From an uncultured bacterium (lineage in GTDB: Bacteria; Patescibacteriota; Minisyncoccia; Phycocordibacterales; GWA1-40-21), in the NCBI GenBank assembly GCA_903831305.1, contig CAIKXE010000004.1:9026-73025 (forward strand): a stretch of DNA of 64,000 nt, in the 5' to 3' direction. This document shows, one piece after another, positions 4,189-63,099 of this stretch (position 1 is the first letter of the stretch; each line of letters starts with the position of its first letter). Made by a program: the position numbers and the translations under genes. Below the pieces are notes generated by a model. The model was not told the DNA's origin. It searched no databases and worked only from the letters and a program-made list of their open reading frames with translations.

Positions 4189-5199
4189 TTATGGGGCTAA
4201 ACAAATAACACCAGCTACACAACCATTAATAGTCCACTCACACCGTTTAGGGGTCGTTAGATTTTGCCAAGAATTATTACAAGCAATAGGAGGGGCCATA
4301 CCCAACGAAGCACAAGTATTGTTATTGGCAATCCTTGTGGGAGGGCAAGCTGATGCAGGTATCGATGGCTCTACCACCATAAAAGAAAGTGTAGTCTCTA
4401 CCTGTGCAGTAGAACAGATACCATCATTAGGACGAGAACAATAAAACTTAAAGGTTAAACTATGCGGACCCGTACCACTCGGAGCAGTCAGACTAGCCGT
4501 CCATAATTTAGTTAAAGAATCATAGCTACCTATACTATAATTTGTTCCGCCATCAAATGAGTATTGGATACCAAAACCTCTATCAGGACCAGTAGACCCG
4601 CCGTCAGAGGCTGTTGCACTAATAGTGTAATTCATTGACCCTCCAGGAATGTATGAGGAAACACCACCACTAACACTAATAGAACCAGCTGTTAAGGAAG
4701 TAATTACGGCCGGTGGTAGCCCATCTACGTCTCCACAGTCAACAGAGTTTGGCGCACTATCTCTAGCTTGTGACTTACCCGTACTATCCACACACCACCC
4801 ACCACCAGTCACTAGGGCATGCCACATAGAATAAGCCGTGATTTCTTTATTTGCCAAGGCATTGGAATAACAGGTAGGAACAACAGATAAACCATCAGTC
4901 GCCGGCCAAGCAGAAGGAGTCATTAAACCCTTAAGGGCAGAATTATTAACCATACCCTCACAACCATTATTAGTATTAGCTAGACCATAACCACCATTAC
5001 TGCTAAAAGCCAGACCAGTGGCCGCCCTAATACTTGATAACTGACTTTTAATAACAGTATCTTTAGATTTATTCCGCGCGGAATTTATAAAAACTAAAAC
5101 AATAGAAGTTAAAAAGGCGATGATGGAGATAACAACCAAAAGTTCTATGATAGTAAACCCTCGGTTCTTACTCTGTGAGTATGTAAAATCTTTTTTCAT
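4189..5199 (-). CDS. Type IV pilin-like protein, paralog of 2368..4107
   Basis: N-terminus NRGFTIIELLVVISIIAFL carries the prepilin motif. The block SARNKSKDT(V/L)IKSQLSSIR...GCEG(M/L)V.NSA...MWHALVTGGGWCVDSTGKSQA is shared with the upstream paralog. The C-terminus is Cys-rich. Confidence 0.7.
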   Translation of the reverse strand: MKKDFTYSQSKNRGFTIIELLVVISIIAFLTSIVLVFINSARNKSKDTVIKSQLSSIRAATGLAFSSNGGYGLANTNNGCEGMVNNSALKGLMTPSAWPATDGLSVVPTCYSNALANKEITAYSMWHALVTGGGWCVDSTGKSQARDSAPNSVDCGDVDGLPPAVITSLTAGSISVSGGVSSYIPGGSMNYTISATASDGGSTGPDRGFGIQYSFDGGTNYSIGSYDSLTKLWTASLTAPSGTGPHSLTFKFYCSRPNDGICSTAQVETTLSFMVVEPSIPASACPPTRIANNNTCASLGMAPPIACNNSWQNLTTPKRCEWTINGCVAGVICLAP

Positions 5200-10348: not shown

Positions 10349-10975
10349 ATGAAGAGTTCTTGGCCTAAAAAAAATAATCTTCAAGCTGGTTTTACCCTTA
10401 CCGAGATTTTAGTCGTTTCCTTTATCCTAGTCATTGTTGGCATAGCAATTGTCAACTTTCAAATAGATCTTTTCTCTTTAAACAAAGTTTCCAGTGATAA
10501 TATTGTAGTCCAAGAAGAAGCCAGAAGGGTACTCAAGGCCCTCACGGCCGAGGCCCGCGGTATGTCACCCTCCAATATGGGGGCATATGCTTTAGCCGAG
10601 ATTGGCACTTCTACAATTACCTTTTATACCAATACAGATAATGATACACTCCAAGAACGTGTCCGCTACTTTTTGGCTGGTACTACCCTTAAAAAAGGTG
10701 TCATTGAGCCAACGGGTACTCCGCTAACTTACAATACAAATAATGAAGTGATACGTGAGGTAGTGCACGACATAGCCAACGGTACAACTTCTATTTTCAC
10801 TTTTTTTGATACTAATTATGACGGCACATCACCCGCTTTATCAGAACCAATCAACCTACCGAGCATCCGTCTAATTAAAATAAACCTCATCATTGATCGT
10901 GACCCACTAAAGTTGCCGGCTCCTTTATCTATGACGACACAAGTATCTATGCGTAATCTCAAAGACAATCTATGA
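10349..10975 (+). CDS. Minor pilin / pseudopilin-like protein (prepilin N-terminal domain)
   Basis: LQAGFTLTEILVVSFILVIVGIAI is a G|FTLxE prepilin motif. At 208 aa it is the size of PilW/GspJ-like minor pilins. Confidence 0.6.
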   Translation: MKSSWPKKNNLQAGFTLTEILVVSFILVIVGIAIVNFQIDLFSLNKVSSDNIVVQEEARRVLKALTAEARGMSPSNMGAYALAEIGTSTITFYTNTDNDTLQERVRYFLAGTTLKKGVIEPTGTPLTYNTNNEVIREVVHDIANGTTSIFTFFDTNYDGTSPALSEPINLPSIRLIKINLIIDRDPLKLPAPLSMTTQVSMRNLKDNL

Positions 10976-12393
10976 TTATAAAAAAAATAAAAAAACGGGG
11001 CTATATTCTGATACAAGTAATTATCTTTGCTTCTATTTCTACTTATATTCTAGGGGCCCTGATCAGCTGGGCCGCCACTGATATCAAAGCCTCCAAACAA
11101 GCGGCTGACCGCGAGCTTGCCATCCAGATAGCTGAAGCCGGCATTGATTATTATCGTTGGCATTTAGCACATGCCCCGACAGACTATCAAGACGGCACTG
11201 AGCAAACCAGCACCTATATCCATGATTTTTTAGATAAAAATGGCACAGCCATCGGTCAATTTGCTCTAGATATTACACCGCCACCACTTGGATCAAGTCT
11301 AGTAACCATCAGATCCACTGGCAGTGTTTTAAAGACTCCAAATCTGACAAGGACGATTCAGGTCAAGTTAGCCAAGCCATCTATGGCCAAATTTGCCGTA
11401 GTGGCCAATGACTACATGCGCTTTGGAGAAGGAACGGAAGTTTTTGGTCCGATTCACTCTAACAAAGGTATTCGTTTTGATGGGCTAGCCCACAACATAG
11501 TTTCCAGTTCTGTCATTACGGCTAATGACCCGGACCATACAGGCAATGAAGAATTTGGGGTCCACACCCATGTCACTCCCACTGATCCTCTGCCACCGGC
11601 CAGTATACCAGACCGCTCAGATATTTTTGAAACCGGCCGGGCCGTGGGTATATCAGAAACTGATTTTGATGGAATTACTGGTGATATCTCTCAAATAAAA
11701 ACTCTAGCTCAGGAAGCAACTGGTTTTTGGCGCGCGGGCTCTGGTGCTTTAGGCTATCACGTAATACTGAAAACCAATGACACTTTTGACCTCAAACAAG
11801 TAAACACCATCACAACTGTGAGTTCCTGCAGTGAAAAATGGAGTATCGGCACGGAAACTCTTTTGGGTAATTTTCCTTTCCCGGCTAACGGGATAATATT
11901 TTTGGAAGACCATATTTGGGTGGATGGTAAGATAGATAGTGGCAAGCTCACCATCGTCGCGGCGACTCTACCAGAAAACGCCTCCACCTTGAGAAACATT
12001 ATAGTTAATAATGATTTATTATATACAAAATATGACGGTACGGACGTTATTGGTCTAATTGCTCAGAATAATATTTTGGTTGGTCTTGTTAGTGAGGATG
12101 ATTTACGAATCGATAGCGCCCTGATGGCTCAAAAGGGCAAAGTGGCTAGACTCTCATACAGCCAATCTTGTTCCTCAACTTATTATACGCGCCAGACCAT
12201 TACTCTGTGGGGCATGATTGCCTCCAATGTCAGATATGGTTTTGCTTGGGTTAATATTTCAACTAATCAGTTTATCTCCGGATATGTTAATCGTATTTTA
12301 TATTATGATAGTAATCTACTCTACAGCCCACCACCGAGCTTTCCCCTCACTTCAGACCAATATGTCACTCTCTCTTGGGAGGAGATAAAATAA
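10972..12393 (+). CDS. Pilus-assembly-associated protein (PilX-like N-terminal hydrophobic segment), hypothetical
   Basis: 473 aa. One N-terminal TM segment (GYILIQVIIFASISTYILGALIS). It overlaps the upstream minor pilin by 4 nt, which suggests translational coupling. I recognise no catalytic motifs. Confidence 0.45.
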   Translation: MIIKKIKKRGYILIQVIIFASISTYILGALISWAATDIKASKQAADRELAIQIAEAGIDYYRWHLAHAPTDYQDGTEQTSTYIHDFLDKNGTAIGQFALDITPPPLGSSLVTIRSTGSVLKTPNLTRTIQVKLAKPSMAKFAVVANDYMRFGEGTEVFGPIHSNKGIRFDGLAHNIVSSSVITANDPDHTGNEEFGVHTHVTPTDPLPPASIPDRSDIFETGRAVGISETDFDGITGDISQIKTLAQEATGFWRAGSGALGYHVILKTNDTFDLKQVNTITTVSSCSEKWSIGTETLLGNFPFPANGIIFLEDHIWVDGKIDSGKLTIVAATLPENASTLRNIIVNNDLLYTKYDGTDVIGLIAQNNILVGLVSEDDLRIDSALMAQKGKVARLSYSQSCSSTYYTRQTITLWGMIASNVRYGFAWVNISTNQFISGYVNRILYYDSNLLYSPPPSFPLTSDQYVTLSWEEIK

Positions 12394-12476: not shown

Positions 12477-13703
12477 TTACACATTATCCATCACGGAGTA
12501 GATCGGCGCCACCATAGATAGAGCAAAGAAGCCCACCGCCGCCCCAATAATGACCATGAGTACTGGTTCAATAATCGTAGAGAGATCTTTGGTTCTTTCC
12601 TCCACATCTAGTTCATAAAAAATAGCTACCTCAGTCAGCATATTGGACATATTTCCTGTCTCCTCCCCCACGCCCATCATCTCCCCCACAAAGGTCGGAT
12701 AATACTTAGGATTTTTCATAAAAATTGCTGAAATATTTTCTCCCTTCTCCACCGCCTTAGAGGCATCGTCTAGCACTTGCTTATAATAATGGTTTGTTAC
12801 AATATCTTTGGTAATCAAAATAGATTGAGCAATGGGGACGCCCGCCGTCAAAAGTGAGGCCAACGTTCTAGCTACCCGAGCCGAGTTAGCCTCCATAATC
12901 AAGTCCCCCACTACTGGTAATCTGATGACTAAATAATCCCTTAGATTTTTACCCATCATAGTTTTTAAAAAGAGATAAGTACCTGAGACCGCACCAATAA
13001 TAAATAAAATAGTTAAAATCCAGTGCCCCACCAAAAAGTCACTAAGTCCAATGATAACCCGGGTGGTAAAAGGTAATTCTGTATTTAGCTCCTTAAAAGT
13101 AGCAGTAATCCCTGGCACCACAAAGATAAACATCAGTATCCCGACGATGATCATCACAGTCACAATCACCGCTGGATAGATCATGGCTCCCTTTACTTTT
13201 TTCTGCAAACGGTAGGTCTTATCCATTTGCAAAGCCACATTACCCAAGGCATCAGACAAGCCACCGCTCTCCTCACCGGCCTTGGCCATAAAAATAAAAA
13301 GATTGGAAAAAATATTTGGATAACCCCGGAGTGATTCACTTAAAGTTTTACCTTTTTTGATTTCAAGATTAATACCTTCTACAATATTTTTTAGCCGGCC
13401 GGGCTTGCTCTGTCTTTCAATTACTGATAAGGCTCGGCTCAGGGACAGTCCAGACCTGGTCATCGCTGATAAATTTTTTGCAAAAGAAATCTTTTGGGCG
13501 ATGGAAACACCACCCAAGAAACTGAAAATTTTATAAAAATATACCTGCCATTTGGTATGGCTGATTTCCTTAGCTGAAATCAGAACACTACCCTCGGCCT
13601 TGAGGTCATTATATAAGTTAAATTTGCTTTGGGCTTCAACCACCCCTTCGTAACGCTCACCACTTTTTTTTATAGCGCTGAATTTAAAATGCATTTTATT
13701 CAC
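12477..13703 (-). CDS. pilC: Type IV pilus assembly platform protein PilC / T2SS GspF family
   Basis: 408 aa. Duplicated GspF domain architecture with three TM segments. It overlaps pilB by 8 nt. Confidence 0.85.
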   Translation of the reverse strand: MNKMHFKFSAIKKSGERYEGVVEAQSKFNLYNDLKAEGSVLISAKEISHTKWQVYFYKIFSFLGGVSIAQKISFAKNLSAMTRSGLSLSRALSVIERQSKPGRLKNIVEGINLEIKKGKTLSESLRGYPNIFSNLFIFMAKAGEESGGLSDALGNVALQMDKTYRLQKKVKGAMIYPAVIVTVMIIVGILMFIFVVPGITATFKELNTELPFTTRVIIGLSDFLVGHWILTILFIIGAVSGTYLFLKTMMGKNLRDYLVIRLPVVGDLIMEANSARVARTLASLLTAGVPIAQSILITKDIVTNHYYKQVLDDASKAVEKGENISAIFMKNPKYYPTFVGEMMGVGEETGNMSNMLTEVAIFYELDVEERTKDLSTIIEPVLMVIIGAAVGFFALSMVAPIYSVMDNV

Positions 13704-15453
13704 TTATTACCCGAAGCACTTCCTCGATCGTCGTTACCCCCTGGACCGCTTTAAAAATACCATCTTCAATCATACTGATCATCCCCTCTTTTTTAGCCTG
13801 CTCGTTTATTACATGGTCAGGCTCGCCCCGCACCACGAGTTCCTTGATAGTGGGAGTCATCTTTAGCACCTCACAGATACATACCCGCCCACCATAACCA
13901 TCTTTGGATTCAGCTGACTCCTTTGGTTTATAAAAAGGAATAGTTTCGATCGTTTCTTTATCTCCAATTATTTTTTCCTTCTGCAAAAACTCCAGCACCC
14001 GTTTAATATCAATAATCTTGGCCAAGGAGGCTACTTCAGATTTTGACAAAAAGTATTTTTCTTTATTGGCACTTAACCGACGAATGAGCCTTTGAGCAAT
14101 AATCACCTTCACCGTTGAAACAATGAGAAAAGGCTCAATCTTCATGTCCACCAGACGGGGCATAGCCCCAGCCGCCGAATTAGTGTGTAAAGTGGAAAGA
14201 ACCAAGTGCCCAGTCAAAGCCGCATTAATAGCCAGAGAAGCCGTTTCATTATCACGAATTTCTCCGACCATGATGATATCTGGATCCTGACGAACTAAAG
14301 AACGCAAACCATTGGCAAAAGTAAAACCAATTTCTGGTTTGACCTGGGTTTGGTTTATCCGATCCATCTGATACTCTACCGGATCTTCAATGGTAGAAAT
14401 ATTCACATCAGCGGTATTTAAAATATCAAGCAAGGTATAAAGCGTGGTCGTTTTACCGGAACCAGTGGGACCGGTTGTCAATATAAGACCGGTAGTCTGC
14501 TTGATCGCCTCATGTAAAATTTCTAAGGCCTCACCATGAAAACCCATGGCTTCCAAAGTAAAACCAGAAACATTTTCTCGTAACAATCGCATAACCGCCT
14601 TCTCACCAAAATAAGTCGGCAAGATAGAAACACGAAAGGATACCCCCTCTCCATTCACCTCCATTTTAAACCGGCCGTCTTGAGGCAAGCGCTTTTCATC
14701 TAGCTTCAAACTGGCGAGTACTTTGATTCTAGCAATGATACTAGAGGCCACACTTTTTGGCAAAACCATAGCGTCATGCAAAATACCGTCAATCCGGTAA
14801 CGGATCAGTAATTCGTTCTCCAAAACTTCAATGTGAATATCAGAAGCATTTTGTAGAATGGAGTGCTTGAGCAAAGTATCCAAAATACGAATCACCGGTA
14901 AATCCTCTGCCATCTTCTTCAAATCTTCCCCCGTACTACCTACTCCCCGATTATCAATCAGACTCTTAAGCGCCACCGCATCTTTCTGAATAATGTCACC
15001 AAACTCCGCCCGTAAACTTTTCTGATATTGTAACAAAGCGCTTTTGATAGAGTCACTATCTGTCAAACGCAATAGTATTTTCAAGCCAACCTTCTTTTTT
15101 ATAAACTCAATAGATGATAGATCCTTGGTATCAAGCATGGCCACTTCCAAAGTATCACCCTCGCGCCTAAAAGCAATAGCATTATTTTTTCTGGCCACTG
15201 GTTCAGGGATCAACGCTAAAATAACCGGATCAATTTTTTGCCCTTTCAGACTGACAAACGGAATACCTAGGACGTAAGCCTCAGCCCGCCGAAAATCATC
15301 CTCGCTAATCTTGGCATTGTTTATGAGCACGTGGCCAACGGTCAATTTATTTTTACTCCTGCCGGCTTCAGCCATAGCATTTTCATAATCTAGTTCAGTA
15401 ATTAAACCAGAGTCTAAAAGAAATTCCTTGAGCTGCTTTTCTTGAACGATCAT
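13696..15453 (-). CDS. pilB: Type IV pilus assembly ATPase PilB / GspE family
   Basis: 585 aa. Walker A LILTTGPTGSGKTTTLY, a GspE N-terminal domain, and Asp/His boxes. Confidence 0.85.
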   Translation of the reverse strand: MIVQEKQLKEFLLDSGLITELDYENAMAEAGRSKNKLTVGHVLINNAKISEDDFRRAEAYVLGIPFVSLKGQKIDPVILALIPEPVARKNNAIAFRREGDTLEVAMLDTKDLSSIEFIKKKVGLKILLRLTDSDSIKSALLQYQKSLRAEFGDIIQKDAVALKSLIDNRGVGSTGEDLKKMAEDLPVIRILDTLLKHSILQNASDIHIEVLENELLIRYRIDGILHDAMVLPKSVASSIIARIKVLASLKLDEKRLPQDGRFKMEVNGEGVSFRVSILPTYFGEKAVMRLLRENVSGFTLEAMGFHGEALEILHEAIKQTTGLILTTGPTGSGKTTTLYTLLDILNTADVNISTIEDPVEYQMDRINQTQVKPEIGFTFANGLRSLVRQDPDIIMVGEIRDNETASLAINAALTGHLVLSTLHTNSAAGAMPRLVDMKIEPFLIVSTVKVIIAQRLIRRLSANKEKYFLSKSEVASLAKIIDIKRVLEFLQKEKIIGDKETIETIPFYKPKESAESKDGYGGRVCICEVLKMTPTIKELVVRGEPDHVINEQAKKEGMISMIEDGIFKAVQGVTTIEEVLRVISE

Positions 15454-15557: not shown

Positions 15558-18500
15558 CTAAAATTCTGAATTTGATCCACCGCTCTCCACAACCGTGACA
15601 GAAGGATTATTACTACAATAAGCGACCTTAGTACCATCAGTTACCTTAGCGGTTACTGTATTTAGTCCCGTGGTCCTTAAGAAATAATAATATGTATTAT
15701 CAGTACTTGAGCCAGAAATCGGTGTGCCGTGCGGATTGGCCACCGTAATAGGATTATTTCTATTAATTATATACCAAGAGTATTGATACGTCCCGTCTGG
15801 CCCATAGACAGTAGCGGTCCAAAGGGAGTTAGAACCTCGATTGATGATGGGTGAGCTTGGGCTAGTTAATTCCACAGTACAGCTCAAGTCACTTCCTGGG
15901 ACACCCGAGCAATAAGAAATAGTCGTTCCTTTAGTACAAGTCCAATCCCCACTAATATATGGTGATTGGGAGGGGGTAGCACCCCCTATACATTCACCAG
16001 CAGTAGAGCTACAATAATCACCCTCATCCGGATTACCACCGCAGTTCTCGGTACAAGAGACCTCACAAGCTGGACAACTACCACCACAATCCACATCAGT
16101 TTCGTTACCATTTTTTTGACCGTCAGTACAAGTTGGAGACGGTGGAGTGGTAACACTCAAATTAGGACAACCAGCACTTAAAGTTTCAGTTCCACTATTA
16201 ATAGTGGAAGTAGCGGTATAATTCTTAACAGAAGTATAGGAAGTATTAACGACACTGGTAGTAGCACCATTAATATTCGTCCCTGCCCAAAGATAAGTAT
16301 ACGCTCCAATTCCACCAGTAGAGGTAGCGGTCCAAGTGACGGTTTGACCAGTAAGAGCAGTAGCTGGAGTGACAGAACAAGAAGCAGTAAGATGATCCCT
16401 AACTATAACATTGTTTTCGCTAGCACTATTAACACAGTTAGCTGAAGAAGTTTCCGTCCCCCTTGTGATTGTAGCAATACCATAATATGTTCCAGCGGTG
16501 GCATATGAGGTGGTGACGATGGCGGTGTTCTTGCCTGTCAAATTTGTACCGGCCCAGCTATAGGTATAGGCTCCGACTCCACCAGTAGAGGTAGCGGTCC
16601 AGGTCACAGTATCACCAGTGAGGACAGTAGCTGGAGCAACGGTACAGGAGACGGTAAAGGTTCCTGATTTGGTAGCTGAACAAGAAACTTCATTCCCTTG
16701 ATTAGCACAGGTCCAGCTCCAAGAATCAGTACCATCCGAGACGACACCTGAGGTACCAATACTACATTTTTCCGCCAGGGTGCTTGGGGCAGTGGTTCTC
16801 GTAGTCCCATTTGCACTACCACAAGAAGGATAAACGACTGGTGGTGGGGTAAAGGTTGCATTTATTGTGGTGTTAGTATTCAAAACAAAACCACAACCAC
16901 CAGTACCCGTACAACCACCGCCAGACCAACCCTGAAAGGAAGCACCACTGTCAGGTGTAGCTGTTAAAGCAATAGTTGTGCCGACGGGGAAAGTCACGAC
17001 ACAATCCGTAGCTGCAGGTCCACAGAGAATCATGGTGGTGGCGTCAGAGACAATACCGGGGCCAACTCTGTTTATACTCAAAGTCGCGGTTTCCGGAACT
17101 ACAACAGCCGAAGCCGAACAGGTGGAAACATAACAATTATTACTACAAGACCAAGTCCAAGGTCCAGTAGAACCTCCCACCACAGCACTTGCCGTACCAA
17201 TATCACATTTTTCTGTATCAGTATTTGGGGCGGTAGTTCTAGCAGTACCGTTTGCACTACCACAATAAGTGTTTGCTGGCTCAGTAGGAGTATCCATGCA
17301 AGCCGAACACTGTGCATTTAAACCACCATATCGCCCATTACAGTCCCATTTATATGTAGCTCCTTCGTCAGCAACATCAACAAAATCTCCTGTAGGACAA
17401 GTGTCTTTTGGCACACCACAAGTACCATCCACACCGTTAGTCTGTATCTCACAAGAAGAAGTAGCTGTTTTATTATTTACCGAATCTATAACTTTTATGT
17501 TAGCGATGTACTTGGTCGTGCCAGTGACAATATTCTGCAAGAAAGTGGCTGAAGTAGAACTCAGATCACCATTCCAGAAATAATTTGGATTACCGGTGTT
17601 ATAAGAGGTAGCCAGCCAAGAAATCTTTCCACTTGGAATATTTAACGGATCATCATAATATCTAGTACCAGAACAAGAAACCGTTGGGTCTGGAGTAATA
17701 GTCACATGATTATCACATGAAACGGTATATTCATTGGCATCCTGATCAGTCACTGTCACTTGACCATAATAGTCATCAGCCTCAGAGTATGAAGTAGTGG
17801 CGGCAGCGGAGTTGTTGCCAGTCAGATTAGGGCCTACCCAGCTATAAGTATAATCCCCAACTCCCCCAGTAGGAGTAGCCGTCCAAGTGACTGTCTCACC
17901 AATGGCCGCCGTAGATGGACTAACCGAACAAGAAGCTAAAAGTGGGGCCGCCGGGAAAGTCGTACTACAAGATGAAACGTAGCCAGCCGAGGAACATGTC
18001 CATGTCCAAGGAGCATCAATGCCACCAGTGATATCACTAGGGATACCGACTCTACATTTTTCTTCATTAGTGCTTGGAGCAATAGCTGTGGTGGTGGCAT
18101 TAAAAGTACCACAATAAGCAGGTGGTGGTACAGGTGGTGGCGTGACAGTACAAGTCACACTACTTGTTACTTCAGTACAAGTCCAATTCCAAGGACCGTT
18201 GGCATCACCATTTATAGCACTAGCAATACCGACCTGACACTTTTCTTCAGCCGTGTCTGGAGGAGTAGAACGGTCAATACCAGCCGGACGTACCTCATCA
18301 GCAACAGTACCACAGGCAGGATTACAAGGGTTTGATGGTGCACCGAACACCCCTACTGATAGAGCGGACTCTTTAGCTCCTAGATATGAACTGACCATGA
18401 ATAAATCAGTGGCTGAAGACGTGGCGGTGGTAGAAGTGGCGGTAGTGGTAGCGATGCGATTTGTCCCCTTGTAAACGTAATAACCGGTAACACCAGGGAC

Positions 18501-21500
18501 GGTACTCCACCTAATGGTGGTATAACCACCACACTGGCCAGCCGACTCGGCAGTAATAGTAGTAGGTGGACAAGGGGCCGAAGGCACACCATGGACAGCA
18601 CTAGATGATGTAGACTCCTGAGTGCCGAGATATGATCTGACAGTAAAGGTATCAGTGGTGGAGGCCAATAGTGTATAGGCAAGAACGGGCGTAGTAACAA
18701 GAGGGGTGGTCTCAGTACCACGATAGACTTTGTAACCAGTAGTTCCAGGAACTGGGCGCCAAGAAAGAGTGGTGTACCCGCCACACTGGGCAGCAGTGGC
18801 GACAAGGCTAGTTGGCGCCCCAAGATTAAATTGAGCAGTAACAGTAGTGGAGGTACTCATAGTAAAGGTACAAGTGAGAGCTGTTCCACTGCAGACTCCT
18901 CCCTGCCAACCGACAAAAATATGACCAGCGGTGGAGGTGGCAGTGAGAGTGACGGTAGTACCATTAATAACCGAAGTAGAAGTAGCTAAACAAGTTGCCC
19001 CGCAGATAACTCCTCCACCAGACACTGTACCAGTTCCCGTTCCAGTTTTGGTGACAGTTAGGGTAGAGGTACAAGGTCCTGAAGGAACTGCGGTTGCCGA
19101 ACTCGAAAATGCAGACTCTGCATTACCATTGTCAACGGCTTTAACTCGAAAAGTTTGTCCAGCTGTACTACTTGCCACATAAGAAATGTTGACAGTATAA
19201 CGAAGAAGTGTAAAAACAACATCGTTACTACTGACATAGATATTGTATCCTTTAGCACCAGGAATAGTGCCCCAGTTTAGAGAAATATTTCCCCCGCAAG
19301 AGGCAGAAGTAGTAGCCGTAAGATTAGGTGCTCCAAGGCCAAACCTGGCAAAAACAGTAGTGGTTGTACTCATAGTAAAGGTACAAGTAAGAGCTGTGCC
19401 ACTACATCCCCCTCCTGACCAGCCGACAAAGGCACTACCAGTAGTAGGGGTGGCCGTGAGAGTGACAGTAGTACCATTAATAACCGAAGTAGAAGTCGCT
19501 AAGCAACCGGCTCCGCAAGAGATTCCTCCACCAGACACTGTACCAGTTCCCGTTCCGATTTTAGTGACGGTTAGGGTAGAGGTACATGAAACAGAAGGGA
19601 TAGGTGATACTGAGTTTGAGGCGAGTGACTCGGTTTGACCAACATCAACAGCCTTAACTTGAAAATATTGTCCAGTGCTACTTGCTATGTAAGAAGTGGC
19701 GGGAGTCTCATAAAGAGGAGTAAAAACCACGCCATCAATACTTTTATAAATATGATATCCAGCTGCTCCGGGTATAGCGTCCCAGTTTAAAGAAATGTTT
19801 CCCCCGCAAGAGGCAGAAGTAGTAGCCGTAAGATTAGGTGCTCCAAGGCCAAACCTGGCAAAAACAGTAGTGGTTGTACTCATAGTAAAGGTACAAGTGA
19901 GAGCGGTGCCACTGCACCCCCCTCCAGACCAGCCGATAAAAGTGTTTCCAGGAATTGGATTAGCGGTGAGTATAATATCAGCACCAGGAATTACGGTAAT
20001 ACTTGCATTCTTACAATCGGCATCACAATTAATTACTGGAGTAACAGGAATACTAGAAGTACTGGTGACCAAACCAGTTCCAGATGATCCACTTTTACTA
20101 ACAGTTAAGACAGGGTATGGGAGAGAACAGGTAGTACTGGCACCGCCATACTGACCATTACAAGTCCAAAACGAAGTATCAGCAGTGTCTTCCGTATTAG
20201 TAAAAGTGCCTTCAATAGCACAGGTATTTACAACCAACGGCAGACTACAAGCACCAGCGACGGGAACGGGACAAGGAGCTGATGGCACACCATTTACAGA
20301 ATTTGATGATACAGATTCTTGAGTATCAAGATATGATCTGACAGTAAAAGTATCCGTAGTAGAGGCTAATAGAGTATAGCTAGTAACCGTGGTGGTAACG
20401 AGAGGGGTGGTTTCCGTTCCACGATAGACTTTGTAACCAGTAACACCAGTAACCGGCTGCCAAGAAAGAGTGGTAAAGCCTCCACACTGACCTGGGGTGG
20501 CTTGGGCGGTGAGCGAACTAGGTGCAGAAATAGTTTTATACTGACAATTACTAACAATGGCTGGACAGATAAAAACTTCCGACCAAGTACCACCTACGTT
20601 TGTTATTGTCTCCGAACAAGCAATACCATTTGGAGGAATTTTCCCAGCACAGGGAATATAAGGATCTATTACTACTTCACAAGTAGAAGACGCCGAAATT
20701 GAGGAACTATCAGTAGCGGTTACTTCAACAGTATAACGAGTCTTGGTCTGACTATTATATTCCTGCCAAACAGTATTCAATGAATCACCAGGGAGACTAT
20801 TGAGCAAGCTTGTTGGATCACCCTTCCACGTATAGGTGTAAGGAGCGTCTCCATTGGAAGCAGATGCCGTCCACTGAAGAGCATCACCATAATTTTCATC
20901 ATATGAAGACTTACCTAAATACGAACAACTAACATCAAGCCCAGGCCCAACGACAACTTGATTTGAACAGTTACTAAAACTTTCCTTATTTGCCTGATCA
21001 ATCACTTTTACAGAAAAAGCATATGTCCCAGGAGTAGAATAAACAATAGTGGTATTTGCGCTGCTAGTCGTGGCCATTTCTAAACCACTACGCTCATCTG
21101 TAAAGCGATACCGGTATGGAGCTGTTCCATCTGTAGCCACAGCCGTCCAGGTAACCAGTTGCCCCACCTTAGCTGAAGACCTGTTTGCGGAACAAGAAAC
21201 TTTAGGGCTAGGAATAGGGGTAGGGGTAATGATACACGGAGCGGAAGGCACAGCAGTAGCAAAATTGGAAAAGGGTATGTTAGCCGGATCTACTCCCGTT
21301 ATTAGTGGTTTAATGGCAAAGGAGTCTCCAATGACCGCATTTAACTCATATGAAATACCCGTTACTGTAGAAACAAAAACGGTTCCCGACGCATTTTTTT
21401 TATAAACCTGATAACTTGTTATACCCGGAACAGAATTCCAGTTTAAAATAACAAAACCATCACAAACGTCAGATGTTTTTGCCCTAATCTCTACAGGTGG

Positions 21501-24500
21501 AACAACTGTAAATTTGATATAGCCCTTTCCCCGAGCCACTGTCTGCCAAATTTTAGATTCAAACGTCTCCCAATTTATCTCCACAAATTCAGGTACATAC
21601 CACTGATTATCTACTTGTAAAAGAATATAATACACACCAGGAGTAGATGGAGCAATAAAAGATGCTCCTTGTTTTTCTAAAGAAAAATTATTACTATTCC
21701 AACCTTTTGGACAATCAAACCCCTCGCAACCACCTCCTTCATAGCGCCCATTGTTTATAATATAAGTTTCTTTATTATAAGGGTCAGTACCTACGGGAGA
21801 AGAAGACTGTAAAATATCTGATCTTTTAATAACTAATTGTTGAGGAGCATTACTACAAGCATAGCTTGATAAACTACCGGTAATATAAAACTCTTCATTT
21901 GGTGAAAGGATGAGCTGAGGAGCCGTTATGGTCATGGTTGTCACATTTCCACCGATATTATAAGCTGTATTAGAAGTCCAGACCACACTATTGGCACTAG
22001 CACTATCAAACGCCAAGAAAGAAGAAATCAGAACTAACACAAAAACTAATATAGTTTTCATCTCCTTTCTTTTTCTAAAAATATAAACACTGATAGACAA
22101 AATAATAACAGACAGAACGCCGAGTAAATAAAAGATGGCTTTACTTGTCGTCTGGGTATTCCCAGTCACCTCATTAGTATAGGTCGTGATAATATTATCA
22201 TTATCATCAGTCACTTTTATATCAATAAATATATTTTGTGCAGAAGCTTTTGCCTTTAAGGAAATGTCCAAAGAGATACCTTTGTTAAAATCTAATTTTC
22301 GGCTATAAGCAGACACAATTTCCTTGTTTTCGTTTAGAATATTTATAAACAGATTAAGTGGATTTTCTTTTACTGTCGGACCTAGATCAATATCCAGTGG
22401 GGCTCCGGTATAGACCATGTTAAAATTATAAGTATCCCCAACCTTCAAAATATTTTTGTTCAATGAGACAGATTGGATAGCTGCCACTGACCCCGTCACA
22501 ATGTATCTTGCTAAAACAGTCGGAGTGACTTTAATAGCATCTGAGTTTAAAAAATCAACGGACAGCTCATAAACTCCTGACTTGTCTAAATATGAAATCC
22601 CCCACTGAAATAGTTTTGTAGTACTGGCAGAAATAGTTATAGGATCAAGCCTATAACTAGTAATCAAATTCCCCGATACGGTCCGATCATATATTTTAAT
22701 CTCAGGGGTTAAAACCTGTCCCGTAGTAAAAGGATTCTCTACATTTATGTAAAGTGTTCCTTTCTTATCTGGGGAGAGAGTCGGCCCCTCCTGCAATCCA
22801 TATTTTTTCTCTCCTATCGTTAGATAAGCATCACTGACCTTTAAAAGTGAGTTATCCCCAGTAACTTCAATAAACTTATCCTTCCAAGACAAAGGCATGC
22901 CGGCCGCAGTATAAAACTGAATTTGAATACCTAAGGCTTTTCCTGAAAAGTTAGTCGGCAGTAAATAACTAAAATTAATTTGTTTCATTTCTCCCGCCTT
23001 TAGAAAAACCGGGCCGTATGACTTACTATCATAAATGACGCCCGCCAAACCGTTTCTCCGATACTCCCCAGCCAAAGAAACCGTATATTTTAAATCTGGC
23101 AAATTATAGTCCTTATCATTTTTCAAAGTAAAAGTTCCTGTTACTTCTTCACCAGCGGAATATTTATCCTTGGGCAGAGAAATATTTTTAATCTCCACTG
23201 ATGGCAGATTATTCAGCTCCGCTATCTCAGCCGGAGTAGCCTGAACTTCATAAGTGTCACCATTATTGGTTTGAGCCAAGACCGTATTAGCTGAAAAAAT
23301 TAAACTGCAAGACACTCCAATAAACAAAAATGTTTTCAGCATTTTATTTTTTTTATAAAACACACTGATAATAATTATTGCTAATAAAACCAAAAGCCCT
23401 AACGCCCATAAAACACCAGGAAAGCCGGTCGAAACGTTATTGCCTGTTATTTCGTGATTATAAGAGGTAATTTTGTCACCCTTGGCATCGGTCACTACCA
23501 CATTTACAAATACCCTGCTAGCACCAGCATTAGCGGTCAAAGGAACTTCTAATACGACTCCTTTATTAAAATCTAATTTACCATTATAGCTTGATACGAG
23601 GCGAGCCTCCTCATTCAAAATAGTAACTGATACATTGAGTACATTTTCCTTAAGAACAGAGGGTTGATCTATATCTTTTGGTATTCCCGTATAAACCATC
23701 TTAAAATTAAACTCCTTACCAGATTTTAAAGTATTCTTGTCTAGAGTGATCTGCTGAATAGTGGCCATCGGTCCGCTGATAACATATTTGACCAAGGTGG
23801 TCGGTGCTACTTTCACTTTTTGGCTGTTATAAAAGTTTACGGCCACTTCATAAATACCAGGCTTATCTAAATATGAGATTTCCGAGGAAAAAGATTTTGT
23901 ACCCCTAGCAGAAATTGTAAATGGTTTTAAAGTGGTGGTTTTAAGCAATGCCCCCATGGCTGATTGGTCATAGATTTTAATTTCGGGGGTGAGGGTTCGT
24001 TCCTGATTAAAAGGATTTTCCAGCTTTACATTTATTACCGCTTTCTTAGTGGCTGACAAAGTCGGCCCTGATGATACAGAATATTTATTATTCCCAATAT
24101 TAAGATAAGCATCAGCTATTTTCATCATTGAGTTTCCACCTGTTACTTCAAGAGGTTTATCCTTCCAAACCAAAGGTAGCCCGGTAGAGGTATAGAGCTC
24201 TATGCGGAGTCCCAAGTTTGACCCAGCTACATTACTTGGTAACAAATAACCAAAACTAATTTCTTTTGTTTCACCAGACTTCAAAAAAACAGGACCGTAA
24301 AACCGGCTATCGTATATTTCTCTCGCCAGACCATCAGCCCCATACCCGCCTACTAAAGATATCTGGTATTTCAAATCAGGAATGCTGTAGCCTTTAATAT
24401 TTTTAATAACAAATACTCCCGCTACTCCTTCGCCTTGAGTATAGGTAGATTTGGCTGGAGAAATATCTTTGATCTCAATTACGGGCAGACTGTCTGTCTT

Positions 24501-24632
24501 GGCCAACTCCTCTAGAGTGGTTTGCACCAAATCCATATTTCGGTTTACTGTCTGGGCTGAGGCGCTAGGGAGAAAAAAGCCAGACCCCAACAAAACCAAA
24601 GCCAAGACAGAGATCAAGAGAAGTTTTTTCAT
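15558..24632 (-). CDS. Giant (3024 aa) polytopic surface protein: two paralogous modules of about 430 aa, then a module of about 2170 aa with FN3-like, PKD-like, B-repeat-like and Cys-rich WxWTC repeats
   Basis: A single uninterrupted frame. The N-terminus MKKLLLISVLALVLLGSGFFLPSASAQ is a signal peptide. There are internal TM + KKNK/RKRKE + signal-like segments at residues of about 415-450 and 845-880. PKD-like units carry (T/V)TWTAT.TGG.G.YTY.W. FN3-like units carry GYK(V/I)Y. The DGQKNGNETDVDCGGSC motif is present. Confidence 0.7.
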   Translation of the reverse strand: MKKLLLISVLALVLLGSGFFLPSASAQTVNRNMDLVQTTLEELAKTDSLPVIEIKDISPAKSTYTQGEGVAGVFVIKNIKGYSIPDLKYQISLVGGYGADGLAREIYDSRFYGPVFLKSGETKEISFGYLLPSNVAGSNLGLRIELYTSTGLPLVWKDKPLEVTGGNSMMKIADAYLNIGNNKYSVSSGPTLSATKKAVINVKLENPFNQERTLTPEIKIYDQSAMGALLKTTTLKPFTISARGTKSFSSEISYLDKPGIYEVAVNFYNSQKVKVAPTTLVKYVISGPMATIQQITLDKNTLKSGKEFNFKMVYTGIPKDIDQPSVLKENVLNVSVTILNEEARLVSSYNGKLDFNKGVVLEVPLTANAGASRVFVNVVVTDAKGDKITSYNHEITGNNVSTGFPGVLWALGLLVLLAIIIISVFYKKNKMLKTFLFIGVSCSLIFSANTVLAQTNNGDTYEVQATPAEIAELNNLPSVEIKNISLPKDKYSAGEEVTGTFTLKNDKDYNLPDLKYTVSLAGEYRRNGLAGVIYDSKSYGPVFLKAGEMKQINFSYLLPTNFSGKALGIQIQFYTAAGMPLSWKDKFIEVTGDNSLLKVSDAYLTIGEKKYGLQEGPTLSPDKKGTLYINVENPFTTGQVLTPEIKIYDRTVSGNLITSYRLDPITISASTTKLFQWGISYLDKSGVYELSVDFLNSDAIKVTPTVLARYIVTGSVAAIQSVSLNKNILKVGDTYNFNMVYTGAPLDIDLGPTVKENPLNLFINILNENKEIVSAYSRKLDFNKGISLDISLKAKASAQNIFIDIKVTDDNDNIITTYTNEVTGNTQTTSKAIFYLLGVLSVIILSISVYIFRKRKEMKTILVFVLVLISSFLAFDSASANSVVWTSNTAYNIGGNVTTMTITAPQLILSPNEEFYITGSLSSYACSNAPQQLVIKRSDILQSSSPVGTDPYNKETYIINNGRYEGGGCEGFDCPKGWNSNNFSLEKQGASFIAPSTPGVYYILLQVDNQWYVPEFVEINWETFESKIWQTVARGKGYIKFTVVPPVEIRAKTSDVCDGFVILNWNSVPGITSYQVYKKNASGTVFVSTVTGISYELNAVIGDSFAIKPLITGVDPANIPFSNFATAVPSAPCIITPTPIPSPKVSCSANRSSAKVGQLVTWTAVATDGTAPYRYRFTDERSGLEMATTSSANTTIVYSTPGTYAFSVKVIDQANKESFSNCSNQVVVGPGLDVSCSYLGKSSYDENYGDALQWTASASNGDAPYTYTWKGDPTSLLNSLPGDSLNTVWQEYNSQTKTRYTVEVTATDSSSISASSTCEVVIDPYIPCAGKIPPNGIACSETITNVGGTWSEVFICPAIVSNCQYKTISAPSSLTAQATPGQCGGFTTLSWQPVTGVTGYKVYRGTETTPLVTTTVTSYTLLASTTDTFTVRSYLDTQESVSSNSVNGVPSAPCPVPVAGACSLPLVVNTCAIEGTFTNTEDTADTSFWTCNGQYGGASTTCSLPYPVLTVSKSGSSGTGLVTSTSSIPVTPVINCDADCKNASITVIPGADIILTANPIPGNTFIGWSGGGCSGTALTCTFTMSTTTTVFARFGLGAPNLTATTSASCGGNISLNWDAIPGAAGYHIYKSIDGVVFTPLYETPATSYIASSTGQYFQVKAVDVGQTESLASNSVSPIPSVSCTSTLTVTKIGTGTGTVSGGGISCGAGCLATSTSVINGTTVTLTATPTTGSAFVGWSGGGCSGTALTCTFTMSTTTTVFARFGLGAPNLTATTSASCGGNISLNWGTIPGAKGYNIYVSSNDVVFTLLRYTVNISYVASSTAGQTFRVKAVDNGNAESAFSSSATAVPSGPCTSTLTVTKTGTGTGTVSGGGVICGATCLATSTSVINGTTVTLTATSTAGHIFVGWQGGVCSGTALTCTFTMSTSTTVTAQFNLGAPTSLVATAAQCGGYTTLSWRPVPGTTGYKVYRGTETTPLVTTPVLAYTLLASTTDTFTVRSYLGTQESTSSSAVHGVPSAPCPPTTITAESAGQCGGYTTIRWSTVPGVTGYYVYKGTNRIATTTATSTTATSSATDLFMVSSYLGAKESALSVGVFGAPSNPCNPACGTVADEVRPAGIDRSTPPDTAEEKCQVGIASAINGDANGPWNWTCTEVTSSVTCTVTPPPVPPPAYCGTFNATTTAIAPSTNEEKCRVGIPSDITGGIDAPWTWTCSSAGYVSSCSTTFPAAPLLASCSVSPSTAAIGETVTWTATPTGGVGDYTYSWVGPNLTGNNSAAATTSYSEADDYYGQVTVTDQDANEYTVSCDNHVTITPDPTVSCSGTRYYDDPLNIPSGKISWLATSYNTGNPNYFWNGDLSSTSATFLQNIVTGTTKYIANIKVIDSVNNKTATSSCEIQTNGVDGTCGVPKDTCPTGDFVDVADEGATYKWDCNGRYGGLNAQCSACMDTPTEPANTYCGSANGTARTTAPNTDTEKCDIGTASAVVGGSTGPWTWSCSNNCYVSTCSASAVVVPETATLSINRVGPGIVSDATTMILCGPAATDCVVTFPVGTTIALTATPDSGASFQGWSGGGCTGTGGCGFVLNTNTTINATFTPPPVVYPSCGSANGTTRTTAPSTLAEKCSIGTSGVVSDGTDSWSWTCANQGNEVSCSATKSGTFTVSCTVAPATVLTGDTVTWTATSTGGVGAYTYSWAGTNLTGKNTAIVTTSYATAGTYYGIATITRGTETSSANCVNSASENNVIVRDHLTASCSVTPATALTGQTVTWTATSTGGIGAYTYLWAGTNINGATTSVVNTSYTSVKNYTATSTINSGTETLSAGCPNLSVTTPPSPTCTDGQKNGNETDVDCGGSCPACEVSCTENCGGNPDEGDYCSSTAGECIGGATPSQSPYISGDWTCTKGTTISYCSGVPGSDLSCTVELTSPSSPIINRGSNSLWTATVYGPDGTYQYSWYIINRNNPITVANPHGTPISGSSTDNTYYYFLRTTGLNTVTAKVTDGTKVAYCSNNPSVTVVESGGSNSEF
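18780..20160. repeat. Intragenic tandem DNA repeats (period about 519 bp; 2 full copies plus partial copies) inside the giant gene
   Basis: 19264-19420 and 19782-19940 are more than 95% identical (cccagttta.agaaat.tttcccccgcaagaggcagaagtagtagccgtaagattaggtgctccaaggccaaacctggcaaaaacag...). 18790-19100 is a more diverged copy. These encode the repeated protein unit of about 173 aa, GAPNLTATTSASCGGNISLNW...TLTVTK.GTGTGTVSGGG..CGA.CLATSTSVINGTTVTLTAT. Confidence 0.8.
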
Positions 24633-28989: not shown

Positions 28990-29817
28990 ATGAAAAAAAT
29001 AATTGGTACTAGTATACTTGCCTTGTTATTAGTCATCCCGGTGCTCTCCGTTAGAGCGGAAACGGATACAGAGAAGCCAAAAACTGGCGCTGAACAGCAA
29101 ACAGAATGGCAAGGTTTAACTAACAAAGAAAAGGAGGCCAGGGCAATCGAAGCCTTAAGATTAAAAGGCATCAAAATTGAGGTGAGAGCAAGCTCTACTG
29201 AAGACCGGATAGAGGCTCACGAGGCCCGTCTAGAAAACAGAGAAAATAAATTTGATATCAAATATGATCGGAATATAAACAGGGCCAGCACCACTGAGAA
29301 AAGATTAGAGAATAGAGAGATGGATATTGAGAGAATCCGTGAAAGGCTAGCTTCAACCACGTCTTCTACTTCAGCCAAGAGAATAGAGCAGATTAATGAC
29401 CACTTAGAGAAGCAAAGAGAGCAGATGAAGCAAGTCAAGGAAAGATTATTAGAAAAGGAATTGAAAGTATTAGAGGTTTTGGGTGAAATTGCCTCTAAAA
29501 TACAAGAAAGGATAGCCATCCTAGCCGCCAAAGGATTAGATATGACTGTTGCCAAAGCTAAATTAGCTGAAGCCTCTATCAAGATTGAAGAAATAACCGC
29601 CGAGGGTCAAAGCCTAGCACTTTTGATTGAAACAGAGATTACCGAAGCTAACAAAGACCAGTTATTTTCAGACATAAAAACTTCGCAAGGCAAAATAAGG
29701 AGTTTAGCACAGGCCACACATGGTCTCTTGGTCGATACTATCAAAGAGATCACCAAGGTTCTACCCGCCAAGGTAATCCGGACCGCCACGACAACTATTC
29801 CAGACACCACAAATTAA
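28990..29817 (+). CDS. Secreted coiled-coil protein, hypothetical
   Basis: Signal peptide MKKIIGTSILALLLVIPVLSVRA, then a highly charged Glu/Lys/Arg-rich heptad-like sequence. Confidence 0.5.
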   Translation: MKKIIGTSILALLLVIPVLSVRAETDTEKPKTGAEQQTEWQGLTNKEKEARAIEALRLKGIKIEVRASSTEDRIEAHEARLENRENKFDIKYDRNINRASTTEKRLENREMDIERIRERLASTTSSTSAKRIEQINDHLEKQREQMKQVKERLLEKELKVLEVLGEIASKIQERIAILAAKGLDMTVAKAKLAEASIKIEEITAEGQSLALLIETEITEANKDQLFSDIKTSQGKIRSLAQATHGLLVDTIKEITKVLPAKVIRTATTTIPDTTN

Positions 29818-33132: not shown

Positions 33133-34662
33133 ATGTCATTACAAATTGTAATTTTGTTGGCGGGAGGGGCGGGACTCTTGGGCATTGCCCTGGGGTACTT
33201 TTTGCGTTTGATCATTTCCCTTGGGAAAAAGGGCTCCATGGAGCTAGAGATAAAAGGGATGATGCTTCAAGCCAAGGAGGAAGCTAAAAAGATAGTCTTA
33301 GAAGCGGAGAACAAAGCGGTTGAGACTTTGAAGGAAATCAAAGCCGAGGCTAAAGAGAAAGAAGACGCGTCCAAGATCGTGGAGGCCAGATTGATCAAAA
33401 AGGAGGATCTCCTGGACCAGCGCCAAACGGATATTGATAAGGAAGTAGAAAACATCAAAAAGAAAATTCTAGAGATCAAAGAGATCCGCGAACGAGCAGA
33501 GAAAGTGGAGTCTGAAAAAGTAGGCGAATTACAAAAAATAGCTAATTTGAGTGTGGAGGAAGCCAAAGAAGAAATCCTAAAAGCCACGGAAAAAAAATAT
33601 GAGGAAGATATTTTAGTTCGTATAAAGAAACTTGAGTTATTTGGAGAAGAAAAATATGAGGCCAAGGCCAAAGAAATTTTGACCACCGCTATCCAAAGAC
33701 TAGGTAACTCTGTGGCCTCAGATGTCATGTCCACTATTGTGAATATCCCATCAGATGAGATGAAGGGTAAGATCATTGGTAAGGAAGGAAAAAACATTAA
33801 AGCGTTTGAAAGAGCTACCGGTGTAGAAGTGATAGTAGATGATACCCCAGGAGCTATCACCATATCCTCCTTTGATCCCGTACGCAGACAAGTAGCGAGA
33901 GTGGCCTTGGAAAACCTCTTACTAGATGGACGCATTCAACCCGTCAAGATTGAGAAAATAGTGGAAGAGGCTAAATTAAGTATAAATAAAATCATTAAAG
34001 AAAAGGGCGAGGCCGCCGCTTATGAATGTGGGGTCTTTAACTTGGATCCGCGCATCGTCGCTATCCTTGGTCGCTTACACTTCCGCACTAGTTATGGCCA
34101 AAATGTGCTTCAGCACTCAGTGGAGATGGCCCATATTGCCGGCATGATTGCCGAAGAAATGAAGGCCAATGTCACGGTGGCCAAGACGGCCGCCCTCTTA
34201 CACGACCTTGGTAAAGCCGTGGATCATGAAGTGGCTGGTACCCATGTGGAGATTGGTCGCCGTATCCTCCAGAAATTTGGAGCCAGTGAGGAAATCATCA
34301 AGGCTATGCAAAGCCATCATGAAGAATACCCTTATGAATCCGTAGAATCCATCATTGTCCAAGTGGCTGACGCCATCTCTGGTAGTCGCCCGGGCGCTAG
34401 ACGTGACAACATTGAGAACTATATCAAGAGATTACAGGACCTAGAAGCCTTGGCTAATTCCTTTGCTGGTGTGGAGAAATCCTATGCCTTGCAAGCCGGT
34501 CGTGAAGTACGGGTCTTCGTTACCCCAGAGCAGATTACTGACTTAGAAGCCAAAAATCTGGCTCATGATATAGCCCAAAAGATAGAAACGGATCTGAAAT
34601 ACCCAGGAGAAATCAAGGTAAACGTGATTCGTGAGCTCCGAGTAGTAGAATACGCCAGATAA
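33133..34662 (+). CDS. rny: Ribonuclease Y
   Basis: N-terminal TM, a coiled-coil region, a KH domain (GKIIGKEGKNIKAFE), and an HD domain (LLHDLGK...H...D). Confidence 0.85.
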   Translation: MSLQIVILLAGGAGLLGIALGYFLRLIISLGKKGSMELEIKGMMLQAKEEAKKIVLEAENKAVETLKEIKAEAKEKEDASKIVEARLIKKEDLLDQRQTDIDKEVENIKKKILEIKEIRERAEKVESEKVGELQKIANLSVEEAKEEILKATEKKYEEDILVRIKKLELFGEEKYEAKAKEILTTAIQRLGNSVASDVMSTIVNIPSDEMKGKIIGKEGKNIKAFERATGVEVIVDDTPGAITISSFDPVRRQVARVALENLLLDGRIQPVKIEKIVEEAKLSINKIIKEKGEAAAYECGVFNLDPRIVAILGRLHFRTSYGQNVLQHSVEMAHIAGMIAEEMKANVTVAKTAALLHDLGKAVDHEVAGTHVEIGRRILQKFGASEEIIKAMQSHHEEYPYESVESIIVQVADAISGSRPGARRDNIENYIKRLQDLEALANSFAGVEKSYALQAGREVRVFVTPEQITDLEAKNLAHDIAQKIETDLKYPGEIKVNVIRELRVVEYAR

Positions 34663-36354: not shown

Positions 36355-36601
36355 GATATTAAATAAACCTGTGCTTAATATAATAGCATATATACTGCGA
36401 ACCAACACACCGTTTTGCTCAACTCAGTACCTAATTAGTCACAATTTCAAGTAAGCCATGGCTTACTTCAGCAAAGAGTATACTTAATATTATTATTGTT
36501 AAAGTGGTCAACGTGGCAGGTTGACCACCTTAGACAAAATACCAAGTGAACCATGGTTCACTTGGTATCGGTTACTAATATAATAACAAAACATTTCATT
36601 G

Positions 36602-60916: not shown

Positions 60917-60982
60917 TCATTAGTGGATTATAAAGTTTTTTTAGGGTAAAATATGATTAGTTAATTAAGTTTAGACAGGTAA

Positions 60983-63094: not shown

Positions 63095-63099
63095 TTAGT

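Follow-up and report, generated by a model that had tools for sequence, protein, structure and literature searches.

A mosaic array of B-repeat and FN3-fold units in a giant predicted surface protein encoded beside type IV pilus genes in Patescibacteria

The window analyzed here is a 64,000-nt stretch of DNA from an uncultured bacterium of the Patescibacteriota (contig CAIKXE010000004.1, positions 9,026 to 73,025), and it carries on its minus strand a giant open reading frame (ORF) with a tandem repeat array in its central part. A preliminary description, made from the sequence alone, had reported near-identical tandem repeats inside this gene. The analysis of the array suggests, with a probability of about 75%, that its DNA is a patchwork generated by homologous recombination between paralogous units, namely an unequal exchange and a later, short gene conversion.

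The repeat array and its domains

Self-comparison of the giant gene revealed three head-to-tail units of 501-534 nt (167-178 residues). The start-to-start spacings of the units were 510 and 513 nt (170 and 171 codons) rather than the period of about 519 bp given in the preliminary description, and the same comparison, which that description had proposed as a check, recovered three tandem units and a near-identical patch but not near-identity over whole units. The third, more diverged copy that had been placed upstream does exist (18570-19070), but its lower coordinates lie downstream in the direction of the gene. Tandem Repeats Finder reported nothing, which is uninformative on a 510-nt period given that its longest period is 500. 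The array and its flanking domains were located as follows:

15558..24632, minus strand: giant ORF of 3,024 residues (9,075 nt), a single ORF with the same continuous layout in its orthologue P0002
20271..20513, minus strand: F0 (residues 1374-1454), FN3-fold domain 5' of the array and paralogue of F3, from sequence comparison
19584..20117, minus strand: unit 1 (residues 1506-1683), B-repeat B1 and FN3-fold domain F1; PF18998 at 30.1 bits, domain map from unit hidden Markov models
19071..19583, minus strand: unit 2 (residues 1684-1854), chimeric B-repeat B2 and FN3-fold domain F2; PF18998 at 28.2 bits, breakpoint test, AlphaFold2 and Foldseek
18570..19070, minus strand: unit 3 (residues 1855-2021), B-repeat B3 and FN3-fold domain F3; PF18998 at 28.2 bits
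18324..18569, minus strand: F4 (residues 2022-2103), FN3-fold domain immediately 3' of the array, orthologous to the last FN3 domain of the P0002 centre

The PF18998 domain (divergent InlB B-repeat, Flg_new_2) was found in each unit when the units were scanned separately, with scores (30.1, 28.2 and 28.2 bits) above the curated gathering cut-off of 23.6 bits, and the whole giant protein gave 61.6 bits over four matched stretches. The second half of the unit did not match Pfam fn3 (PF00041) even at E <= 10, and in Pfam it gave only weak matches, to the related beta-sandwich families GH85_C and Ig_RIMBP2. The AlphaFold2 model of unit 2, for which an alignment of the window and orthologue domains (A4) was used as input, reached a mean predicted local distance difference test score (pLDDT) of 95.3. 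An alignment of unit 2 with database matches (A3) was not used for structure, given that the second B-repeats of the matches fell under the FN3 half. When the second half of the modelled unit 2 was searched with Foldseek, FN3 structures were returned with target-normalised template modelling scores (TM) of 0.69-0.77 and with many chains at probability 1.0, among them 3mpc_A (bacterial Fn3-like, TM 0.69) and 7jgu (FN3, TM 0.77, root-mean-square deviation 2.4, 89 columns). According to the model, the second half of the unit is an FN3 fold, i.e., a seven-stranded beta-sandwich. The earlier guess of an FN3-like plus a B-repeat-like domain was thus borne out by the PF18998 matches in all three units and by AlphaFold2 and Foldseek.

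The nearest relative of F3 was F0, and not F1 or F2 (78% protein and 76% DNA identity); in a 219-nt stretch, with the two copies offset by 1,701 nt, the DNA of F0 and F3 is ~80% identical. The stretch 18001-20000, which coincides with the Thr/Gly/Ser/Ala-rich repeat array, has the highest G+C content of the window (0.478 vs about 0.42) and a positive GC skew on the plus strand.

The near-identical patch and the second unit

Over whole units, the DNA identity was 70.8% between units 1 and 2, 66.5% between units 2 and 3, and 55.8% between units 1 and 3, and the protein identity was 61-64%. The two segments that had been called almost identical are so as a patch, with 7 mismatches in 149 nt (95%) when 19272-19420 and 19782-19930 are compared in the 510-nt register and with 101 nt exactly identical, but not as whole units, which reach only 56-71% at the DNA level. 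The copies of the patch were mapped as follows:

19288..19388, minus strand: exact 101-nt core, unit 2 copy; longest exact intragenic repeat
19798..19898, minus strand: exact 101-nt core, unit 1 copy; longest exact intragenic repeat
19235..19451, minus strand: wider patch, unit 2 copy, 86% over 217 nt, from the diagonal self-comparison and mismatch list
19745..19961, minus strand: wider patch, unit 1 copy, 86% over 217 nt, from the diagonal self-comparison and mismatch list

The patch spans the B-repeat/FN3 junction of units 1 and 2, and its exact core encodes the last two B-repeat strands, the linker and strand A of the FN3 domain (strands from the secondary structure of the model). Identity fell off gradually on either side of the core, and beyond the patch (about 100-220 nt) it was 44-75% in 60-nt sliding windows. 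When the aligned sites were shuffled, the longest identical run had a mean of 15.6 nt and a maximum of 42 nt in 10,000 trials; the observed run of 101 nt exceeds this maximum, and therefore the patch is not due to chance. Codon pairs encoding the same residue were identical in 42 of 49 cases inside the patch vs 28 of 59 outside it (Fisher P = 4e-5). This enrichment of synonymous codon identity means that protein constraint fails to account for the patch. The mismatches within the patch comprised all substitution types, and no other donor was found in the 64-kb window.

The divergence at four-fold sites was 0.12 in the patch, 0.23 between units 2 and 3 in their 5' half, 0.50 in the F1/F2 body and 0.45 between F0 and F3, and it was 0.39-0.64 between orthologous segments of the window and P0002. 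The value of the patch was below that of the F1/F2 body (P = 0.004) and below that of the orthologue C-terminal region (P = 0.001), which indicates, on synonymous change, that the patch is younger than the F1/F2 body and than the split from the orthologue. Where units 1 and 3 have different bases, unit 2 was unit-3-like at 50 of the first 56 positions and unit-1-like at 95 of the remaining 127. The switch point lies near 19449: unit 2 is unit-3-like from 19583 to ~19449 (the 5' 135 nt) and unit-1-like from ~19448 to 19071. The maximum chi-square for this breakpoint was 64.5, vs at most 22.4 in 10,000 permutations (P < 1e-4), which lends statistical support to unit 2 being a chimera.

These data would be accounted for by a history of two steps. 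In the first, which the chimera suggests, the coding segments of B1 (upstream) and B3 (downstream) would have undergone an unequal exchange that made unit 2, with the B3-type 5' 135 nt followed by the 3' half of B1 and then by a copy of F1, and that inserted one 510-nt unit in frame. A B3-like 5' end, a B1-like remainder and then an F1 copy are what is expected from one unequal exchange of misaligned copies. In the second step, deduced from the synonymous-site ages, a later gene conversion would have copied ~100-220 nt from one of units 1 and 2 to the other, over the junction of B-repeat and FN3 domain, and left 101 nt identical; the patch is much younger than the rest of unit 2, which points to such a later, short conversion. 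The preliminary description had offered recent duplication or ongoing gene conversion. The conversion half of this proposal agrees with the bounded patch, the synonymous sites and the chimeric unit 2, but a recent duplication of the whole ~519-bp unit is not supported, given that the four-fold divergence outside the patch equals that of orthologues from another species.

Several points weigh against this recombination history. It is built on one genome and one distant orthologue, and no intermediate was found. Each segment offers few four-fold sites (22-39), and the 5' half of units 2 and 3 differs only marginally from the F1/F2 body (P = 0.047). The F1/F2 body has reached the divergence seen between orthologues, and values this close to saturation do not tell whether the unit duplication preceded or followed the species split. 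The event was not linked to any recombination gene, and RecA was not looked for.

Relatives, copy number and alternative explanations

A search of 5.8 billion proteins returned only fragments of the same protein and one orthologue, P0002 (NCBI assembly GCA_964502955.1, locus L002), which is 62% identical overall to the giant protein. The N-terminal modules and the C-terminal third are collinear with P0002, and the two proteins differ in the arrangement of the centre: in the window, F0 and a linker precede B1-F1-B2-F2-B3-F3-F4 (three B-repeats and five FN3 domains), and in P0002, three FN3 domains and a linker precede B1-F-F-B-F (two B-repeats and six FN3 domains), without B2 and F3. Paralogous domains of one genome resemble each other more than they resemble the corresponding domains of the other genome. 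F0 and F3 share 78% protein identity vs 70% and 60% to the Fc domain of P0002, and B2 and B3 share 84% vs 61% and 59% to the second B-repeat of P0002, which itself is nearer to the C-terminal B-repeat of P0002 than to B3 of the window. Taken together, the closer paralogues and this pattern of the P0002 B-repeats point to recurrent turnover of domains in the protein centre. The longest exact intragenic repeat of P0002 is 41 nt, and no tract exceeds 76% identity; therefore, the near-identical patch is specific to the lineage of the window. In L002 at ~1080-1230, an N-terminal signal peptide (ATGAAAAAACTT...) was observed in a frame other than that of the annotated P0002 start, and this 1-nt frame shift could be genuine or due to misassembly.

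Two type IV pilus genes were identified downstream of the giant gene, with pilB immediately next to it:

13696..15453, minus strand: PilB-type type IV pilus assembly ATPase (PF00437, E = 6e-122)
12477..13703, minus strand: PilC-type platform protein (PF00482, E = 1e-56)

PilB of the window and PilB of the P0002 organism share 95.5% protein identity, with a divergence of 0.59 at four-fold sites. The giant protein, at 62% identity to its orthologue (only 55% in module 2), therefore evolves much faster than its neighbour. No relative of the giant protein was found when it was compared with genome contigs. Scans of metagenome contigs with peptide patterns and with a 61-nt piece of the exact core gave nothing, and no population variants were recoverable in this way. 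The PilB query of genome contigs (one genome per species) yielded 80 Patescibacteria loci. In none of them was pilB preceded by a gene homologous to the giant one, and only L053 showed weak matches, at the level of domains; the closest PilB matches in this set were at most 71% identical and came from Patescibacteria/Paceibacterota assemblies.

The protein of 3,024 residues was recorded exactly in 12 collection blocks, and all 6 contigs that were read carry it. Contig L001 (sample ERZ27313541) showed 0 differences over the 9,075 nt of the gene, and contig L084 (Joint Genome Institute, JGI 3300045653) showed 0 differences over 10,726 nt. Three independent assemblies thus agree base for base across the array, and the three units are also present without change in the partial proteins P0001 and P0125. 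All of the recovered assemblies that span the array have three units and belong to one strain, and no assembly with an altered unit count was found among them; the other species has two B-repeats. The only distinct strain is represented by contig L083 (JGI 3300045650), with 2 mismatches in 3,446 nt. Its position 1 corresponds to window position 18571, which is exactly the distal edge of the array, and the contig does not cover the array. No exact repeat that would explain this break was found (the longest nearby is 20 nt). The break could be due to chance, low coverage or structural heterogeneity, and it was taken as a hint, no more. Contig L001 is 100% identical except in its last 176 nt (13102-13277, corresponding to window positions 14356-14530 in pilB), which carry 47 differences, most of them at intervals that are multiples of three; this end of the contig resembles a chimeric join to pilB from a related population.

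The 101-nt patch is a plausible substrate for in-frame recombination, by which 510 nt (170 residues) would be gained or lost. A bolder interpretation is that the array serves an episymbiotic Patescibacterium as the stalk of a host-contact protein associated with its pili, and that this stalk actively varies in length and shuffles its sequence. If true, the recombination of B-repeat/FN3 units would alter reach or specificity on ecological timescales. This is considered unlikely, and it was left open because of the fast divergence relative to PilB, the domain count that differs from that of the orthologue and the contig end of L083 at the array edge.

It is still less probable that whole units were duplicated recently in tandem, that fast diversifying selection then acted outside the patch and that structural constraint held the patch. 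Such a scenario would fit a protein that evolves fast at a four-fold divergence similar to that of PilB, as well as a patch that covers a possibly constrained domain junction. However, selection on the protein offers no explanation for a four-fold divergence of 0.50-0.53 outside the patch vs 0.12 inside, nor for the enrichment of identical codons for identical residues in the patch (P = 4e-5), and the 5' part of unit 2 is unit-3-like, not unit-1-like.

An assembly artefact, in which similar repeats or mixed strains were merged or copies collapsed, was also considered, given that the source is a short-read metagenome assembly and that the contig of the near-identical strain L083 begins at 18571. 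This is very unlikely: the gene is identical in L001 and in the third sample (L084), the exact protein recurs in the collection blocks and contigs described above, and the two patch copies have distinct flanks. The exact repeat of 101 nt is also shorter than the k = 141 implied by the contig name of L001, and, with three assemblies in agreement base for base, the assembly collapse that the preliminary description had warned of was not borne out.

A function of the DNA or RNA itself, e.g., as a promoter within the gene, a transcript from the antisense strand or a binding site that occurs in both copies, could in principle maintain nucleotide identity beyond the need of the protein, and both patch copies are overlapped by long antisense ORFs:

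19243..19638, plus strand: 131-residue antisense ORF that lies entirely within the sense gene, a by-product of the repeat
19795..20154, plus strand: antisense ORF of 119 residues, a by-product of the repeat

Both ORFs exist as first described, and they were rightly regarded as artefacts of the repeat, but their N-termini are not strictly identical: they have 46 residues in common, and one of them starts 11 residues before the common stretch. These residues are shared because both ORFs read the repeated patch. It is the sense gene that has domain and fold support, and by this evidence the antisense ORFs are by-products of the repeated sense sequence. No RNA family was found in the giant gene with Rfam at gathering thresholds, the second copy is absent altogether from the orthologue, and the gradual decay of identity around the core is as predicted for conversion tracts, which leaves little room for a DNA or RNA function, although no scan for promoters or terminators was made here.

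Diversity-generating retroelements are reported to be common in candidate phyla radiation genomes and to have near-identical repeat pairs of ~100-150 nt, but it is scarcely credible that the patch pair is the template and variable repeat of such an element, or part of another programmed variation system, given that its mismatches are of mixed types and not confined to adenines in one copy, that both copies lie mid-gene in B-repeat/FN3 domains and not in a C-terminal lectin-type fold, and that no reverse transcriptase family was matched in 34 of the 35 ORFs of at least 200 residues in the window (all but the antisense ORF at 33267..33935). A diversity-generating retroelement within the window was excluded on the mixed mismatch types and on these scanned ORFs.

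The giant protein, its neighbourhood and its significance

The giant protein consists of three predicted extracellular modules with two transmembrane hairpins between them, and the repeat array sits in the third module (2,140 residues). The hydrophobic segments are at residues 1-25, 400-429, 435-453, 829-854 and 857-880. Each hairpin (residues 400-453 and 829-880) has a K/R-rich loop between its helices and, like a signal peptide, carries an AxA-like motif at the end of its second helix (VLA followed by QT, and ASA followed by NS). With 51% identity, modules 1 and 2 are paralogues of each other. The orthologue has the conserved hairpins too, and none of its junction codons is a start codon; a separate module-1-like gene with its own signal peptide is found on the orthologue contig (L002, 3-692, minus strand). 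The giant ORF may be a fusion of formerly separate genes, and its product is possibly cut by signal peptidase. No family was matched when the giant protein was compared with NCBIfam. The AlphaFold2 model of the N-terminal module 1 was of low confidence (pLDDT 62, predicted TM score 0.38).

Four cysteine-rich modules of ~45-60 residues each (CG..NGT..T.AP.T..EKC..G....W.W.C) were observed at residues ~2104-2650 (window 15558-18320, minus strand), where they alternate with PKD-like GGxGxYTYxW domains and a fourth B-repeat. The cysteine-rich and PKD-like modules gave no match in Pfam or NCBIfam, and the DNA copies of the cysteine-rich modules are at most about 75% identical. As judged from its domain types, the probable role of the array is that of a spacer or stalk, keeping the cysteine-rich and PKD-like C-terminal domains off the membrane. 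The transmembrane segments, the extracellular-type domains and the pilus gene neighbourhood suggest that the giant protein is located at the cell surface.

The giant gene heads a type IV pilus cluster; beyond PilB and PilC come several genes for pilin-like proteins that bear N-terminal methylation motifs. Proteins of this kind that are unusually large, again with the motif, are encoded at 2368-4107, 4189-5199, 7392-10298 (minus strand), 10349-10975 (plus strand) and 35131-36408 (minus strand); among them are a protein of 968 residues with Flg_new, CarboxypepD_reg and Fib_succ_major, one of 579 residues with Flg_new and one of 425 residues with Laminin_G_3. Six ORFs of 247-703 residues are without any Pfam match (59204-63843, 10972-12393, 28990-29817 and 50598-51752, all on the plus strand).

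The array was compared with known repeat systems. Periscope Proteins have tandem arrays of long, highly identical folded-domain repeats in which DNA identity drives variation in repeat number (2021, PMC8201768). The giant protein resembles them in being a predicted surface protein with a run of tandem folded domains, in which DNA identity between repeats may serve as a substrate for the in-frame gain or loss of units. Unlike Periscope Proteins, however, it has an array of three units only, each with two alternating folds; these units are only 56-71% identical in DNA and 61-64% in protein, and near-identity is confined to the patch of 101-217 nt. Moreover, no variation in repeat number was found among the assemblies of this organism (one strain spanning the array). 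On its sequence, the array would not be placed among the Periscope Proteins, whose repeats are highly identical. When compared with fibrillar adhesins with stalk domains (Monzon et al., 2021, PMC8286594), the giant protein is similar in being a long predicted surface protein of many domains, among them repeated beta-sandwich domains of the stalk type (B-repeat, FN3 and PKD-like). It differs from these adhesins in that no recognisable adhesive domain or cell-wall anchor was identified, that it is anchored by transmembrane hairpins and that it has two extra N-terminal paralogous modules. With one PF18998 domain per unit above the cut-off, the array is also like the tandem InlB B-repeat proteins (PF18998, TIGR02543-type), and 169 database proteins matched the unit at E <= 0.001, mostly via PF18998. 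Unlike in the array, most of these matches are B-repeats alone, covering 40-50% of the unit; strict alternation of B-repeat and FN3 is rarer, with PF00041 also present in 5 of the 120 matches listed.

The locus is a mosaic repeat of an ordinary kind, set in a giant predicted surface protein that evolves fast, and it adds a new example of a well-known phenomenon; it raises no new question and shows no new mechanism. It is of use mainly for the quality of annotation and assembly: the repeats are genuine, the gene is unbroken and was assembled reproducibly, and the antisense ORFs 19243..19638 and 19795..20154 should not be annotated as genes. It also provides a documented case in which repeat turnover by unequal exchange and short-tract conversion would have shaped an envelope protein encoded beside type IV pilus genes in Patescibacteria (candidate phyla radiation). 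If such proteins serve host contact, structural change would be concentrated in the central B-repeat/FN3 region, which is where strain-level differences would then best be sought.

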